From Eubacteriales bacterium (GTDB lineage: Bacteria; Bacillota; Clostridia; Oscillospirales; CAG-272): a stretch of DNA of 54,545 nt. The notes under the pieces were generated by a model, which worked only from the letters and a program-made list of their open reading frames with translations, ran no database searches and was not told the DNA's origin. Positions 4,902 through 40,104 of this stretch are shown piece by piece. Location of the stretch: positions 1 through 54,545 of the forward strand of contig JAZQTA010000088.1 of NCBI GenBank assembly GCA_045630385.1. Reading direction: 5' to 3'. How positions within the stretch are numbered: the stretch's first letter is position 1; the number at the start of each line of letters is the position of its first letter. The position numbers and the translations under genes are program-made.

Positions 4902-7874
4902 ATGCTGTTAATGGATAGTAAATCCGTAAACGCGGTGGCTTTCGCAGAGCGCCACCCCCCTTTTTATAAACGAAAATGGTTTTTCATTATGCTGGCCGTC
5001 GTGGCGTTTCTTGCTATGGTGGGCTTCGGTGTGTATATCGGCCTGCGCCCCGAGCCGCCCGCGCCGATTCGCGGAATTTGCGTGTACGGTGATTACGAAT
5101 ATGAAATTTTAGAGGATGACACCATTTCCATTCTCACCTATACGGGTGATGAGGAGGACGTGTTCGTTCCCATCGCCTTGGAGGGAAGGCTCGTTACCCG
5201 CATCGGTGATTTTGCATTTTCGCAAAACGATTCGATCGTGACGGTAACGCTTCATCCCATGATAAAGGAGCTCGGTGAATATGCCTTTTATAAATGCATC
5301 GCTTTGACGAAGGTGGAATTTGCGGATGGGCTTGAGGTTCTCGGCACGGCCGCCTTCCATCAATGCACGCTTCTTGAGGAGGCGATCTTGCCCGATAGCA
5401 TCCGAGAAATGGGAGATATGGTCTTTTCCCAATGCCTTGCGCTGAAAAAGGTAAAGCTTCCCGCCACGCTTGGCTCTCTCGGCATCGCAAGCTTTGCGGT
5501 CTGCCAAAATCTCAAGGAGATCGAGCTTCCCGAGACCTGCGCGTCGATCGGAGAGAAGGCCTTTATGGGATGCGAGTCGCTTGAGGTGCTTGCGCTTCCC
5601 GAGGCGATCCGAGAGATCGGCCCGCATGCATTTCAGGCATGCACCGCATTGAAGACTCTGGATCTTCACATGGTGGAAAGCATCGGTGAGGCCCCGATCT
5701 CGGGCGCTTCCGCAATGGAGAGCATCACCGTGGATGCGCAGAATACCGCCTACCACGTGACGGACGGCGCACTCTATGAAACGAAAACGAAAACGCTGAT
5801 CGCGTTTCCCATGTCCGCTTCGATCACGGAGCTTTCCGTAGAAAGCGGCACGGTTGCCATCGGTGCTTATGCCTTCGCGGAAAATTTGAAGCTTGGAAAG
5901 CTTGTCCTTCCCGAGGGGCTCGTGCGCGTGGGAGATTACGCGTTGCACCAAACGAAAAACCTTTTGGAGCTTTCGCTTCCGTCCTCGCTTTCCGAGGTTG
6001 GCGTGATGTCCTTCGTGGATTGCGGATTCATCAGAGAATATAAGGACGAGTTCCTTATTATCGGAGACGGAATATTGATCCATTATACGCCGCAGATGGA
6101 TGCGCTCGGCGCAAAGCTGAAGCAAACGGAGTATGCCACCCCGGTCGAAACGACCGTGCAGGGAAACAACGGCGCCTCTATCCGTCAAGCGGGCGTGAAG
6201 CTGACGCTTCCTGCCGAGGTGAAAAAGATATCCTGCGCCTTTTACAGAAATACGCAGCTGATCGAGGTGACCGTGCACGGAGGCGTTCGTGAGATCGATC
6301 CCTATTCCTTCAGCCTTTGCAATTTCCTTGAAAAGGTAACGCTTGAAAACGGCGTTTCGAAAATCGGCGCGTACGCCTTCTTTACCTGCGATCTTCTATC
6401 CGCGCTTTCGCTTCCGACCGAGGGACTTTCCTACGTTGGCGAATATGCGTTTTCGGGCTGTGACGGACTCGTCGAGGTGACCGTTCCTTCCTATCTCAAA
6501 ACGATTCCCGAGGCCATGTTCTTTGATTGCGTGCGCCTTGAATCCGTTATTCTCGAGGAGGGCATCACCGAGATCCAAAGCTATGCCTTTTCAGGAACGG
6601 CGCTGAAAAGCGTGAGCATTCCCTCCAGCGTGACCACCATGGGCGATAACGTATTCCAGGCAACCAAGCTGAAAAGCTTCACCCTGCCCGATACCGTCAC
6701 GAGCGTTGGCGAAGGCCTTTTGCTTGACTGTAAGGATCTGACCTCGGTGACCTTCGGTAAGGGAATGACCGAGGTTCCGATCGCCTTTTTGGCAGGATGC
6801 ACGGCGCTTACCGAGGTTTCCGTGCCCGAGGGCTATATAGCTCTCGGAGAGGAGGCGTTTTACGCCTGCAGTGCCTTGAAGGAGATTCGCTTGCCGGATA
6901 GTTTGACTGAGATCGGAAACGTGGCATTCGGCAAGTGCGATTCTCTTGAAAAGGTGGTTGCAAGAAAAATTGTTTCTATTGGAGATAATGCATTCTTTCT
7001 TTGCAAAAAACTGAAGAATTTCAATTTCCCGGCAACGCTTTCTTCTATTGGCAACCAAGCATTCTATTCTTGTTCCGCTTTAAAGGATATTGATCTGACT
7101 TATGTAAATGACCTCGGCGTGGAGGTGTTTGCTTCTTGTACTTCGTTGACCTCGGTGCGTATTCCGAGCACCTTCTATTATCTGCCTGCGGGCACGTTCT
7201 CCGGGTGTGAGAGACTTCGAAGCGTGCGCATTGAAGCGCCACTGGAGCGTATCGGAATGCAAGCGTTTAATAACTGTATCTCGCTTACGAGTGTGACGCT
7301 GCCCGAAACGCTGACGCATATCGACGCGTATGCCTTCGGCGGATGCACCTCGCTGAAGTCGCTTCCCGATATGCCGAGTGTAACTACCTTGGGAGACGGC
7401 GCGTTCTCCTATTGCTCCGCGATTGAGGAAATTATACTGCCCTCGAATATAACCGTGCTTGGCGATCGCGTATTTGCCGAGTGCCTCGGCCTTCGTTCCA
7501 TTGTGCTTGGAGATACGGTAGAAACGATCGGAGAGGCGCTCTTCGATAGCTGTGAGTCGCTTATGTACGTTACGCTTCCGCAGAATCTTGATACGCTTCC
7601 CGCAAGAACCTTCCAGAACTGCGCGTTGCTTGCGATCATCACTCTGCCGGACAGCATTCGGGTGATCGAGGAAAACGTGTTTTACAGCTGCGCAAGGCTC
7701 GGCCGCGTGGATCTCCCGAAATCCCTGATCAAAATCGGCAAGGCGTCGTTTTTCGATTGCCCCTCGCTTTCCAAGGTCGTATATCCGTATAGCGCGGTGC
7801 GCTTTATGGGTGTCACCGTAGAGGAAGGCAACGACGAGCTTTTTGCGGCGCTTCAGTGCGCGGAGGTAGAGTGA
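4902..7874 (+). CDS. Membrane-anchored BspA-like (TpLRR / LRR_5) leucine-rich repeat surface protein
   Basis: N-terminal TM helix WFFIMLAVVAFLAMVGFGVYIGL, then many LxxIxLPxxLxxIgxxAFxxCxx repeats. AGGAG RBS. Confidence 0.92.
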   Translation: MLLMDSKSVNAVAFAERHPPFYKRKWFFIMLAVVAFLAMVGFGVYIGLRPEPPAPIRGICVYGDYEYEILEDDTISILTYTGDEEDVFVPIALEGRLVTRIGDFAFSQNDSIVTVTLHPMIKELGEYAFYKCIALTKVEFADGLEVLGTAAFHQCTLLEEAILPDSIREMGDMVFSQCLALKKVKLPATLGSLGIASFAVCQNLKEIELPETCASIGEKAFMGCESLEVLALPEAIREIGPHAFQACTALKTLDLHMVESIGEAPISGASAMESITVDAQNTAYHVTDGALYETKTKTLIAFPMSASITELSVESGTVAIGAYAFAENLKLGKLVLPEGLVRVGDYALHQTKNLLELSLPSSLSEVGVMSFVDCGFIREYKDEFLIIGDGILIHYTPQMDALGAKLKQTEYATPVETTVQGNNGASIRQAGVKLTLPAEVKKISCAFYRNTQLIEVTVHGGVREIDPYSFSLCNFLEKVTLENGVSKIGAYAFFTCDLLSALSLPTEGLSYVGEYAFSGCDGLVEVTVPSYLKTIPEAMFFDCVRLESVILEEGITEIQSYAFSGTALKSVSIPSSVTTMGDNVFQATKLKSFTLPDTVTSVGEGLLLDCKDLTSVTFGKGMTEVPIAFLAGCTALTEVSVPEGYIALGEEAFYACSALKEIRLPDSLTEIGNVAFGKCDSLEKVVARKIVSIGDNAFFLCKKLKNFNFPATLSSIGNQAFYSCSALKDIDLTYVNDLGVEVFASCTSLTSVRIPSTFYYLPAGTFSGCERLRSVRIEAPLERIGMQAFNNCISLTSVTLPETLTHIDAYAFGGCTSLKSLPDMPSVTTLGDGAFSYCSAIEEIILPSNITVLGDRVFAECLGLRSIVLGDTVETIGEALFDSCESLMYVTLPQNLDTLPARTFQNCALLAIITLPDSIRVIEENVFYSCARLGRVDLPKSLIKIGKASFFDCPSLSKVVYPYSAVRFMGVTVEEGNDELFAALQCAEVE

Positions 7875-8602
7875 TGCTTTGTATCAGTATTGCAGATCTC
7901 ACGGTCGGAATTGCGCATCGGTACGGATATATTCAAAAATTGTGCAAGGATTATCTTGCGCCGCAAGGGGCAGAGCCGATTTTCACGGTTTGTCCCACGC
8001 AAGCGGAGCTGGATGCCGAGGGGGCGCTTTCCGAGCCGCGCCTTCCGGATGCGTATCTTGAAAGCGTGGTCGCCTACCGTCAGATCGCCGAGCGGCTTCC
8101 GATGTATGGCGCTATGGTTTTTCACGGTGCCGTCGTCGTGCTGGACGGTCGCGCTTACGCCTTCACCGCGCGTAGCGGCGTCGGTAAAACCACGCACCTC
8201 TTGCTTTGGCTCAAGGCCTTTTGCGAGCGCGCCTACGTGCTGAACGGAGATAAACCCGTTCTTCTTTGGAAGGATGGCAAGGCGTATATTTGCGCAACCC
8301 CCTGGAAGGGAAAGGAAAATCTCGGAGAGGGCGGTATGCTTCCGCTTTCCGGTATTGGATTTTTAAACCGAAGCGAGCAGAATTTTGCGCATCCGATCGC
8401 GCCCTCCGATGCACTTGCGGCGTTTCTTTTGCAGGTGTATATGCCGAAAAACGGCGAGGCTCTGCTTGAAACGATGTCACTTTGCGATAAGGTGCTTTCG
8501 TCCGTTCCGCTACTTTCCATGCATTGTAATATGGAGCTCTCTGCCGCCACCACCGTGGAGCAGGGATTTCGAGATCTGATAGAAAAGGAGAAAACTTTAT
8601 GA
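7874..8602 (+). CDS. HPr-kinase-related P-loop protein
   Basis: FHGAVVVLDGRAYAFTARSGVGKTTH (Walker A), LNGDKP, TPWKGKE. ATG overlaps the LRR stop (TGATG). Confidence 0.75.
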   Translation: MLCISIADLTVGIAHRYGYIQKLCKDYLAPQGAEPIFTVCPTQAELDAEGALSEPRLPDAYLESVVAYRQIAERLPMYGAMVFHGAVVVLDGRAYAFTARSGVGKTTHLLLWLKAFCERAYVLNGDKPVLLWKDGKAYICATPWKGKENLGEGGMLPLSGIGFLNRSEQNFAHPIAPSDALAAFLLQVYMPKNGEALLETMSLCDKVLSSVPLLSMHCNMELSAATTVEQGFRDLIEKEKTL

Positions 8603-36632: not shown

Positions 36633-37676
36633 ATGCGCATTGAAGACATAGACAAGAATTTTTTGCCGGCCACCGTTCCCGAGGGTGTGGAGCTCGAATA
36701 CTTTTCCGTAAGAGAAGCGCCCTTCAAGGTGTGGGGACTCATCTATGAGGGCGGCACCTTCCGCCGTCTGCCCGGCGCGGTTGCAAAGGCAACCAACAGC
36801 GGCGTGGAATTTCTGCACGAGCACTCTGCGGGCGGCCGCGTTTCCTTCCGCACGAATTCCCGCTATATCGCCATCAGTGTAAAAACGCACAATGTGGCAC
36901 GCTTTTCGCATTTTCCGACCTGCGGTGCATCGGGCTTCGATCTTTTTGTGGAGAACACGTTCGCGGGTGCATATCTGCCGCCTTATATGGTGGAGGATGG
37001 CTACGGCGGTCTGCGCAGCTTCCCCACGGCAGAGGCACGCAACCTTATTTTGAATATGCCTCTCTATACGGCCGTGAGCGAGCTTTATATCGGTCTTGAA
37101 AAGGGCGCAAGCCTTGAAGGCTATGACCCTTACCTGGATATTCCTCCCATTGTGTATTACGGCTCGTCCATCACGCAGGGCGGATGCGCCTCCCGTCCCG
37201 GAAACGCCTATCAGGCGAAGATCACGCGCGAACTTGCGGTGGATCATATCAACCTCGGCTTCTCGGGAAGTGCCAGGGGCGAGGTTGCGATGGCAGAGCA
37301 TATCGCATCGCTTCCCATGAGCGTATTCGTTATGGATTACGATCATAACGCGCCGAACGTACAGCACCTGATCGAAACGCATGAGCGCTTCTATCGCATC
37401 GTTCGAGAAAAGAATCCCGAGCTTCCGATCGTTTTCATCACTGCGCCGAACGTGTACCACCGTCCGACCATGGCGCCTCGCCGCACGGTCATTATGGAAA
37501 ATTACACGCGCCTGCGCGAGGAGGATAAGAACCTTTACTTTATCGACGGCACGTCCTTCTTCCAAGGCACGGATGCGGATTATTGCACCGTTGACGGATG
37601 CCATCCCACGGATTACGGCTTCTACCGTATGGCAATGGGCATTCTTCCCACACTCAAAAGGGCTTTGAAGCTGTAA
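36633..37676 (+). CDS. SGNH/GDSL hydrolase with N-terminal accessory domain (paralog 1)
   Basis: SGFDLF, YYGSSITQG, NLGFSG, DYDHN, DGCHP. AAGGAG RBS. Confidence 0.88.
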   Translation: MRIEDIDKNFLPATVPEGVELEYFSVREAPFKVWGLIYEGGTFRRLPGAVAKATNSGVEFLHEHSAGGRVSFRTNSRYIAISVKTHNVARFSHFPTCGASGFDLFVENTFAGAYLPPYMVEDGYGGLRSFPTAEARNLILNMPLYTAVSELYIGLEKGASLEGYDPYLDIPPIVYYGSSITQGGCASRPGNAYQAKITRELAVDHINLGFSGSARGEVAMAEHIASLPMSVFVMDYDHNAPNVQHLIETHERFYRIVREKNPELPIVFITAPNVYHRPTMAPRRTVIMENYTRLREEDKNLYFIDGTSFFQGTDADYCTVDGCHPTDYGFYRMAMGILPTLKRALKL

Positions 37677-37688
37677 AGGAGAGAGAGC

Positions 37689-38735
37689 ATGAGAATCGAA
37701 GACATTGATAAGAACTTTAAGCTTCAGGGACTGCCCGAGGGCGTGGAGCTTTCCTATTTTGACGTAAAGGAAGCCCCCATGAAGGTCTGGGGACTGATGT
37801 ATGAGGAGGACTCCTTCTGCCGCTTGCCTGATGCGGTTGCAAAGGCAACGAGCGCAGGGGTATACGGCCTGCATGAGCACTGTGCGGGCGGTCGCGTGAC
37901 CTTCGCCACCAATTCAAGATACGTTGCCATCGCCTGCCACGTGCGCTCTATCGGCAAGATGCCGCATTTCACCACGATTGGCAGCGCAGGCTTCGATCTT
38001 TACGAGGAAAACGATTTTGTTTGCAGCTTTTTCCCGCCCTATAATTATACCGAGGGCTACAGCGCAAGCTACAGCTTCGGCGGCGAGATGAAGGAAAGAA
38101 GGCTTCTGATCAATTTCCCGCTCTACACGGCGGTGGAAAGCCTCTTTATCGGAATCGAAAAGGGCGCAACACTCACGGCGTACGATCCTTACCGCGATAT
38201 TCCCCCGATCGTGTATTACGGCTCGTCCATCACGCAGGGCGGCTGTGCCTCCCGTCCCGGAAACGCCTATCAGGCAAAGATCTCGCGCGAGCTTGCGGTG
38301 GATCATATCAACCTCGGCTTTTCCGGCAGTGCCAAGGGCGAGACGGTGATGGCAGAATATATCGCATCGCTTCCCATGAGCGCCTTCGTGATGGATTACG
38401 ATCATAACGCGCTCTCCGCGCAGTATCTTGCCGACACGCACGGTCGCTTTTACGAGATCGTCCGCGAGAAGAATCCCACGCTTCCGATCGTATTCGTCAC
38501 CGCGCCGGACGTCAATTATCAGCAGGGAAGCTTTGTGGATCGCCGCGCTGTGATTATGAAAAACTTCGTGCGCTACTCGGCAGAGGATAAGAATCTCTAT
38601 TTCGTAGACGGCGCATCCTTCTATCAGAATACCGATGCGGATTTTTGCTCGGTGGACGGATGCCACCCCAACGATATGGGCTTCCATTACATGGCAGAGG
38701 GAATGCTTCCCACGCTGCGAAGCATTCTGAAATAA
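37689..38735 (+). CDS. SGNH/GDSL hydrolase with N-terminal accessory domain (paralog 2)
   Basis: AGFDLY, YYGSSITQG, DGCHPND. Same N-terminus (MRIEDIDKNF) as paralog 1. Confidence 0.88.
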   Translation: MRIEDIDKNFKLQGLPEGVELSYFDVKEAPMKVWGLMYEEDSFCRLPDAVAKATSAGVYGLHEHCAGGRVTFATNSRYVAIACHVRSIGKMPHFTTIGSAGFDLYEENDFVCSFFPPYNYTEGYSASYSFGGEMKERRLLINFPLYTAVESLFIGIEKGATLTAYDPYRDIPPIVYYGSSITQGGCASRPGNAYQAKISRELAVDHINLGFSGSAKGETVMAEYIASLPMSAFVMDYDHNALSAQYLADTHGRFYEIVREKNPTLPIVFVTAPDVNYQQGSFVDRRAVIMKNFVRYSAEDKNLYFVDGASFYQNTDADFCSVDGCHPNDMGFHYMAEGMLPTLRSILK

Positions 38736-39551: not shown

Positions 39552-39599
39552 AAAAAGCAATAGCGAGACAGTGCATAACTGCCTCGCTATTGCTTTTTT
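39552..39599. terminator. Bidirectional intrinsic terminator
   Basis: AAAAAGCAATAGCGAG...CTCGCTATTGCTTTTT between convergent genes. Confidence 0.85.
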
Positions 39600-39618
39600 A
39601 TAATATTTTTTATAGTAT

Positions 39619-39837
39619 TTAATAAACCTCGATCATCACGGGTGGTGGGCAATTTTCACAGAGGTGGCCGCTTACCAACGCTTTTTTGCAACGACTGCAG
39701 CGGTAGAGCGGCTTTATGATAAATTTCCCGTCATCCTCCGTCACCGTCAGCGGAACGCCCGCAGTCAATCCGTATTTTTCGCAGATCGATTTTGGAAAGG
39801 TGATCTGTCCGTGCCCATTGACCTTCACTTCAAACAT
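39619..39837 (-). CDS. AbrB/MazE/SpoVT family DNA-binding protein with C-terminal CxxC...CxxC
   Basis: VKVNGHGQITFPKSICEKYGL..G...FIIKP swapped-hairpin motif; CSRC and CENC; GAGGAG RBS. Confidence 0.85.
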   Translation of the reverse strand: MFEVKVNGHGQITFPKSICEKYGLTAGVPLTVTEDDGKFIIKPLYRCSRCKKALVSGHLCENCPPPVMIEVY

Positions 39838-39854
39838 AACCGTATCTCCTCATC

Positions 39855-39884
39855 AAAAAAGTGCGCAAGCCGAAACTCACGCAC
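39855..39884 (-). terminator. Intrinsic terminator or attenuator directly 5' of the abrB-like RBS
   Basis: Minus strand GTGCGTGAG-TTTCGG-CTTGCGCAC-TTTTTT. Confidence 0.8.
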
Positions 39885-40070
39885 CGAAAAACGCAAATCC
39901 CGATTGCTGCGAAACAAACCGAACAGAATTGACATTGCTATCATCATCTAAACCGGTGGAACCTGCGCTTTTACCAAATTCACATGGTTTAAATGATTGA
40001 CAGCTAAAAAAGGGTATAATACCCCCTTTGAAAAAAGTATGGCAATTTTATATATTCAGTTTGTTTCGCA
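39855..40070 (-). ncRNA. Candidate ~215-nt structured RNA (leader or sRNA), family not recognised
   Basis: Bounded by a consensus promoter and a terminator. Two nested 18-bp helices whose non-Watson-Crick pairs are G.U on the minus strand. Confidence 0.7.
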
Positions 40071-40075
40071 AAATT

Positions 40076-40104
40076 ATTATATCATGCTTTTAAGGATTTG
40101 TCAA
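40076..40104 (-). promoter_or_regulatory. Consensus sigma-A promoter of the structured RNA / abrB-like unit
   Basis: Minus strand TTGACA-N17-TATAAT with extended TG. Confidence 0.85.

Follow-up and report, generated by a model that had tools for sequence, protein, structure and literature searches.

We describe here a structured RNA that, together with its promoter, is encoded on the minus strand between positions 40104 and 39855 of a 54,545-nucleotide (nt) contig from an Eubacteriales bacterium (GenBank assembly GCA_045630385.1, contig JAZQTA010000088.1; the whole of this stretch is called the window below). This RNA is a member of a large family of leader RNAs that is absent from Rfam. Copies of the family have a common fold whose helices are conserved and covary, a 3' region in which three pairings exclude each other, and a position before open reading frames (ORFs), and they occur many times over within genomes. 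We consider it probable, at roughly 0.7, that they are cis-acting transcription-attenuation leaders built from an anti-antiterminator, an antiterminator and a terminator. Three findings of the kind looked for in an attenuator point to this reading: an intrinsic terminator lies between the promoter and the ribosome-binding site (RBS), a conserved pairing is mutually exclusive with that terminator, and an element farther upstream competes for the antiterminator strand.

In the mechanism that we propose, each copy consists of its own sigma-70-type promoter, a long rod (a closing helix, P1, followed by inner helices and a three-way junction) that ends in a conserved apical loop, a linker strand, L, a terminator, and then an RBS and a gene. 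With L paired to the terminator 5' arm and loop (the antiterminator), polymerase would read through and the gene would be expressed. With L captured by the apical loop and the 3' strand of the apical stem (the anti-antiterminator), the terminator would form and an RNA of ~215 nt would be released. Termination would be conditional in such a scheme, the read-through form would be the ON state, and a putative effector would tip the balance; a metabolite, an ion, a protein or another RNA are all candidates for this role.

The window copy follows a NUDIX gene (40662-40135, minus strand). An earlier reading of the window, made without database searches and called here the sequence-only reading, had placed a perfect TTGACA-17-TATAAT promoter at this point, and a promoter scan agreed: the -35 hexamer TTGACA (40099-40104) and the -10 hexamer TATAAT (40076-40081), the latter with TG in front of it, match at 12 of 12 positions on the minus strand with a 17-nt spacer, the whole spanning 40104-40076. 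The transcript probably starts near 40070 ± 3. We observed that the 221 nt from 40075 to 39855 had a minimum free energy (MFE) of -84.3 kcal/mol, as compared with -48.6 ± 4.1 kcal/mol for 200 dinucleotide shuffles (z = -8.8), none of which folded as well, and that the fold of the opposite strand was far weaker (-56.4 kcal/mol, z = -4.5). In the MFE structure, which for P1 agrees with the family alignment described below, P1 is an 18-base pair (bp) helix between a 5' strand at 40053-40070 and a 3' strand at 39908-39925. It encloses a side hairpin (AAAGGGGGUA-UUA-UACCCUUUUU, followed by a U-run; 40007-40029) and an inner long helix (39937-40004; 18 bp and one bulge, formed by 40004-39986 with 39954-39937) that bears the apical stem-loop. 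The closing helix, side hairpin, second helix and apical stem-loop drawn in the sequence-only reading were all recovered at the same positions.

To the 3' side of P1 is L (GGGAUUUGCGUUUUU; 39887-39901), the putative switching strand, which by our pairing analysis has two possible partners, the apex and the 5' arm plus loop of the terminator. Its partner in the apex, made up of the apical loop and the 3' strand of the apical stem (AAAAGCGCAGGUUCC; 39958-39972), is complementary to it in 15 of 15 ungapped pairs. Pairing of L with the terminator 5' arm and loop generates an antiterminator hairpin (39865-39907), which is mutually exclusive with the intrinsic terminator (39855-39885, with a stem from 39885 to about 39861 and a U-tract at 39860-39855). 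A plain terminator had been proposed here, and its stem and T-run were indeed found by a terminator scan; in the MFE structure, however, hairpin 39907-39865 takes the terminator 5' arm and displaces the terminator. Because of this use of the 5' arm we regard the 3' end as a two-state region. The elements of the leader can be described as five segments, namely the 5' strand of the apex, the apical loop with its 3' strand, the linker, the terminator 5' arm and the terminator 3' arm, that are pairable either as 1:2 with 3:4 or as 2:3 with 4:5, and this is the logic of a classical attenuator.

We examined these pairings across the family in an alignment made with MAFFT (A2), which contains 124 distinct full-length copies, 22 from BLAST or model searches and 102 from a pattern scan. 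The consensus of the apical loop was UUUGGUAAAAAYGC and that of L was GGAGUUUGCGUUUUU; the first partner of L, the apical loop with the 3' strand of its stem, had the consensus AAAAAYGCAAAUUCC. In A2, 97.1% of cells in the L:apex helix were paired over 15 pairs, five of which change on both sides, and among 148 copies 89 were paired at 15 of 15 positions, 34 at 14 and 19 at 13. The second partner, the terminator 5' arm and loop, was paired with L in 94.9% and 95.0% of cells in its two helices, and 6 of the 11 pairs of the main helix change on both sides. For the 22 rows from outside the pattern scan, the paired fractions were 97.6% for L:apex, 93.2% for L with the terminator arm, and 99.1% for the terminator itself.

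The energies of the competing forms were close to each other. Folded as a terminator only, the 3' part of the leader had a mean energy of -17.2 kcal/mol, and folded as an antiterminator only it had a mean of -14.3 kcal/mol; the 2 forms were within 3 kcal/mol of each other in 60 of the 124 copies. For L and the rod, the best duplex had a mean of -16.9 kcal/mol versus -10.0 kcal/mol for the reversed L sequence, and the local hairpin that occupies the best site had a mean of only -3.6 kcal/mol. In roughly a quarter of the copies the best site was near the 5' end of the rod instead of at the apex. Over 38 distinct linkers, cognate L-apex duplexes averaged -17.5 kcal/mol and non-cognate ones -14.6 kcal/mol, and for two of the three divergent copies on contigs C8, C52 and C95 of the source genome the cognate duplex ranked best or second-best among 37 non-cognate partners.

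Leaders of the family are ~150-250 nt long, with closing helices of 13-25 bp. For the rod and terminator together, 78.3% of the cells in A2 were paired as compared with 70.5% when partners were shuffled, and none of 500 shuffles reached the observed scores; sliding the partner by 1-3 columns reduced pairing from 78% to 34-48%. P1 was paired in 91.4% of cells, and 11 of its 15 pairs change on both sides (one pair is CG in 77 copies, UA in 21, GC in 19 and AU in 2; another is CG in 45, UA in 44 and AU in 14). The terminator was paired in 98.1% of cells, with 4 of 10 pairs changing on both sides, and the apical stem in 84.5%. The side hairpin is kept in sequence as well as in shape (A2 consensus GGG..UA.UAUACCCUUUUUU), with its GGG/CCC pairs 87.5% paired, and unpaired nucleotides are conserved in the AAUA that follows P1, the side-hairpin loop and the apical loop. 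When each sequence was folded by itself, with 20 shuffles for each, all 124 rods had z below -3 (mean -9.0); the MFE structure was closed by P1 in 117 of the 124 copies and had exactly two hairpin loops, that is, a three-way junction with side hairpin and apex, in 110 of them.

Non-Watson-Crick positions in these helices also argue for a structure at the level of RNA. The sequence-only reading had noted that such pairs in the window copy are G.U on the transcribed strand, and we found G.U in excess of A.C in every helix family-wide: 71 versus 24 in P1, 453 versus 209 in the inner helices, 230 versus 7 in the terminator, and 277 versus 19 in the linker-apex helix. As G.U is far above A.C, selection must have acted on RNA and not on a DNA repeat.

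The source genome (2.63 Mb in 155 contigs, 78% complete) contains at least nine paralogous copies of the leader; BLAST gave partial matches on five other contigs, and three more divergent copies were picked up with an nhmmer profile of the 3' part. All nine that we inspected have a -10 box, a long closing helix of differing sequence, an inner stem-loop, the conserved linker and a terminator. By a set rule, an RBS-preceded ORF was found behind eight of the nine, and a lipoprotein-type ORF behind the ninth, on contig C8, was read by eye. The ~215-nt unit of the sequence-only reading is upheld as far as its ends are concerned, a consensus promoter and a terminator, but it is not the single stand-alone RNA that had been supposed; besides the copies in the source genome there are hundreds more in its relatives. 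Copies inside one genome are strongly diverged and have nevertheless retained the fold.

A covariance model of the 3' part of the leader (R1) had matches in 40 of the 61 genomes of a sample of relatives, with up to 14 per genome; within this sample, 30 of the 36 members of the same genus were positive, as were 9 of 24 genomes taken singly from other families of the order. In a sample of the class, 37 of 151 genomes had matches at E ≤ 1e-4, with up to 16 in one genome. Also, an exact scan with a 22-nt linker pattern, over one genome per species, gave at least 121 stretches. Among the matches listed, nearly all are from uncultured gut or faecal metagenome-assembled genomes (Clostridia, Eubacteriales, Oscillospiraceae, Acutalibacteraceae, Ruminococcus sp., Faecousia and Candidatus Scatosoma), and one (L138) is a false positive. 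At several loci, R1 and pattern-scan matches showed leaders in tandem, 210-320 nt apart, an arrangement also known for riboswitches.

The failure of the sequence-only reading to recognise a known family was matched by Rfam 15, which gave no hit at gathering score over the whole window. At E ≤ 10, the segment 39700-40250 gave chance-level matches alone (E ≥ 1.3; the best, rli48, scored 18.6 bits against a threshold of 100), and in 20 other loci that bear copies only tRNAs scored. We found no description of the family in full-text literature searches. A look-up of terms for the leader family in the main text of Narunsky et al. 2024 (PMC11109978) gave no match, and a 16-mer of L had no match in seven of the supplementary files of Fremin & Bhatt 2021 (PMC8040213), a catalogue whose two further, unsearched files may still hold the family.

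A -10 box (at least 5 of 6 matches) was present in 119 of 127 copies, ending at a median of 5 nt before P1, and in 84 of these it was accompanied by a -35 box (at least 4 of 6). At the other end, an RBS-preceded ORF was in view for 133 copies, starting at a median of 20 nt beyond the U-tract and, in 104 of the 133, no more than 40 nt beyond it. In the window, the RBS AGGAGA (39850-39845) precedes a 72-amino acid ORF (39837-39619, minus strand) that has an AbrB/SpoVT-MazE-type N-terminal domain (Pfam MazE_antitoxin, E 2.2e-05) and a C-terminal CxxC...CxxC motif, and a strong terminator with a 20-bp stem (39553-39597, minus strand) closes the leader-AbrB unit. Classed by their N-terminal features, the ORFs behind the leaders included 31 lipoprotein-like, 16 with other signal or transmembrane-like segments, 15 of a Cys-rich 'ITG..ELTPG..CLGNG' family, 8 Zn-ribbon-like, 7 AbrB-like, 2 short 'IIxFxxxDLI' peptides and 51 others. 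Pfam searches with ten downstream examples identified BspA-type leucine-rich repeat, SHOCT and MazE/AbrB domains, and nothing in five of the ten.

The association of leader and AbrB gene, which the sequence-only reading had suggested be sought in other genomes, is conserved, in that the four best AbrB-like homologues obtained with the window protein as query (E ≤ 1.9e-5; G023:C61, G012:C40, G007:C18 and G027:C49) are each directly downstream of a leader match. As a candidate for a universal regulator of the leaders, the AbrB-like/Zn-ribbon protein was rejected: with this query, homologues were found in 9 of the 61 relatives, versus leaders in 40.

Two groups of downstream proteins are of interest in their own right. 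The Cys-rich proteins (..ITG.ELTPG.P..CLGNGEQGFECCCDECDYYLLCF..; L013:1058-1429 and 14 other loci) make up the gene family met most often behind the leaders, with 15 of ~130, and one member scanned had no Pfam match. Also, small ORFs of 38-53 amino acids behind the leaders at L002 (contig C66), L005 (C34) and L010 (C52) have a common N-terminal motif, ..P.A.II.F...D.I..SG, and two of them also share a C-terminal GEWD; the one tested had no Pfam match. Judged by these motifs, they may be a peptide family under leader control.

Several observations weigh against attenuation as we have described it. The scan pattern itself fixed most of L in 102 of the 124 rows of A2. The apex and L are near-invariant, and their covariation rests on few changes (the 5 of 15 pairs, and the difference of cognate from non-cognate duplexes, given above). 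The inner rod helices were only 50-68% paired in the MAFFT columns, a region that length variation misaligns, and because of this misalignment the inner helices rest on folding of the individual sequences and not on aligned covariation. With the rod intact, the L:apex pairing would be a long-range pseudoknot, for which the reach of the 4-7-nt connector appears borderline by a rough geometric estimate; if L cannot reach the apex in one molecule, the pairing must require partial opening of the rod or a trans contact between molecules. No ORF start was in view within ~200 nt for 19 of ~150 copies, and some leaders precede another leader, which would suit free-standing small RNAs as well. The downstream genes have no obvious common function, so the putative regulon yields no hint of the signal. 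Finally, the sole RNA evidence, in assembled contigs from two metatranscriptome runs, is one contig (354 nt, with 3 differences and 1 gap) that covers 39615-39920, namely L, the terminator and the whole ORF; it hints weakly at read-through, and carried-over DNA could account for it. The rod (39921-40070) was without cover in the 2 runs, which counts neither for nor against transcription, and the pile-up of depth at L and the terminator arises because that stretch is a repeat common to paralogues and to other organisms.

Tentatively, the attenuation reading can be extended to a self-contained RNA-RNA regulatory network, or to a riboswitch class for an unrecognised global signal. In the first form, the apical loops of terminated ~215-nt leaders could bind in trans to the linkers of nascent siblings and so force termination of these. 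We propose this because apex and linker are near-identical among paralogues while the rods drift, and because of a second, apparently orthogonal class of leaders. If this is correct, expression of a dozen unrelated surface and accessory genes would be coupled to the pool of leader RNA. In the alternative form, the three-way junction and conserved side hairpin could be an aptamer for a small molecule, which on binding would bend the rod so that apex and linker meet.

The second class just mentioned is represented in the source genome at C8:6777-6927, C52:1826-1980 and C95:27287-27445 (loci L009-L011). These leaders have a different inner hairpin (GGGUGUACUAUGCCAUUUUAGUAC...), apex, linker and terminator (GCGCUCGCUUUGCGGGCGC), and the class looks like an orthogonal set inside one genome.

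A family of free-standing 'sibling' small RNAs (sRNAs) of ~215 nt, acting in trans with the apical loop as seed, is in our judgement an unlikely alternative to attenuation. According to it, the downstream gene would be incidental or served by leaky read-through. The consensus promoter and strong terminator that frame each unit would suit such RNAs, as would conservation of the apical loop among paralogues whose rods vary, the tandem units, and the 19 copies with no ORF start in view. Yet the ORF is always in the same orientation as the leader, and the short gaps reported above leave no room for a second promoter. The conserved antiterminator pairing would have no role in a plain sRNA, and the leader stays with AbrB-like homologues across genomes. 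Also, we looked for a separate trans RNA complementary to the apex, for a target, and for extra apex-like or L-like decoys, and none was found beyond the leaders in the 78%-complete genome. Hfq, considered as a required partner, had no support: it was not found in the source genome, and in the class sample it was found in only 10 of 36 other leader-positive genomes versus 66 of 114 leader-negative ones. One further observation on apex-like sequences is that contig C135, near 5796 on the minus strand, has an apex-like 5' region (TGCAAAAACGCATATTCC) right after a -10-like box; it is without recognisable rod or linker and is possibly due to chance.

We think it quite improbable that the leaders are constitutive processing or stability elements, with P1 as an RNase III-type site or 5' stabiliser, a leaky terminator and no regulated switch. 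Long perfect stalks are classic RNase III substrates, and a closing helix of 13-25 bp does join the 5' and 3' ends of the rod. Such a function would, however, leave unexplained both the complementarity of L to the apex (97%) as well as to the terminator arm (95%) and the conserved loop and stem sequence of the terminator.

A DNA-level inverted repeat with no RNA function, whether a miniature transposable element or an invertible promoter segment, is hardly credible: although 18-bp inverted repeats flank ~130 bp behind the promoter and 39919 is joined to 40053 in one DNA contig (run X1, depth 5), the G.U excess in P1, inner helices and terminator is a strand bias that a DNA repeat should lack, the copies are highly diverged yet keep the fold, where a young transposon would have left copies almost identical to each other, the DNA contigs showed no strand-switch joints, and no recombinase gene is among the neighbours in the window. 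The 133 nt that are skipped in the joined contig (39919/40053) are exactly the interior between the P1 arms, and the join may reflect either a slip of the assembler at the inverted repeat or a deletion variant that is rare.

As attenuation leaders, these RNAs may be compared with known systems, the features of which (attenuators, GEMM riboswitches, pT181/pIP501 and Correia elements) are given here as general background. The closest in kind are riboswitch expression platforms, T-box leaders and multi-hairpin attenuators. As in these, a structured leader is proximal to the promoter, a terminator is just upstream of the RBS, the antiterminator is exclusive with it, and a third pairing sequesters the antiterminator strand; several copies per genome and tandem arrangements are likewise shared. 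The differences are that the sequestering helix is not an aptamer's basal P1 but involves the tip of a ~45-bp rod, namely an apical loop together with the 3' strand of its stem, that the leader is without a specifier or T-box sequence and without a leader peptide, that its genes are without a common pathway, and that it has no Rfam match. With regard to the leader peptide, an AUG precedes the side hairpin in some copies, but it is not conserved and this candidate was dropped. We also rejected a T-box leader, as the Rfam T-box model gave no match and the downstream genes are those of lipoproteins, Zn-ribbon proteins, AbrB-like proteins and others.

The c-di-GMP-I (GEMM; cyclic diguanylate) riboswitches of Clostridia resemble the leaders in having many copies per genome, before surface, secreted and unrelated genes and often with terminators, but the fold and sequence of the leader are unrelated to theirs and the genome already has a c-di-GMP sensor. 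We found no support for c-di-GMP as the signal, given this riboswitch and three GGDEF genes already present. The riboswitch itself is at G000:C99:16747-16834 on the minus strand (70.8 bits), and two GGDEF genes are on the same contig (C99:2377-2844 and 7825-8268).

A 6S-like function had been raised in the sequence-only reading as something to be tested, and we saw no sign of it. The leader is like 6S RNA in being a largely double-stranded rod of ~200 nt with paired ends and its own promoter and terminator. Unlike 6S RNA, of which a genome has one or two copies, it is present in nine or more, directly before ORFs that start at a median of 20 nt beyond the terminator; its antiterminator pairing is conserved, and no Rfam 6S model matched it. 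6S RNA was rejected for these reasons. In countertranscript attenuation of the plasmid rep genes of pT181 and pIP501, as proposed here, RNA-RNA pairing initiated by loops decides whether a terminator forms in the nascent leader. There, however, pairing is with an antisense RNA transcribed from the other strand, whereas the partner of L, the apex, is on the same transcript, and the leaders are not on plasmid replication genes. Transcribed miniature inverted-repeat transposable elements (MITEs) of the Correia type are also multi-copy, ~100-200 bp long with terminal inverted repeats, and found upstream of genes, can carry promoters, and form hairpins in mRNA, but the leader copies differ from them in being diverged with compensatory changes and in having the strand-specific G.U excess and a conserved three-state 3' platform.

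If the attenuation reading holds, one RNA device would control up to 16 transcription units per genome, the products of which are mostly secreted, cell-surface or small accessory proteins. The device is present in close to one in four of the class-sample genomes, and most carriers named in the pattern scan are Clostridia of gut and rumen that have not been cultured; it would rank with the more abundant classes of cis-regulatory RNA that Rfam does not yet list. Its architecture would be unusual, in that the antiterminator is sequestered from the tip of a ~45-bp rod, by a strand in the apical loop, instead of from the base of an aptamer. Identification of the effector would reveal what governs the cell surface of these abundant anaerobes of the gut, be it a global signal or an RNA-RNA circuit.

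Elsewhere in the window, on the plus strand, are two tandem paralogous SGNH/GDSL esterase genes (36633-37676 and 37689-38735), which encode proteins of 347 and 348 amino acids; the Pfam domains Lipase_GDSL_3 and GxDLY were identified on the second of these (37689-38735).

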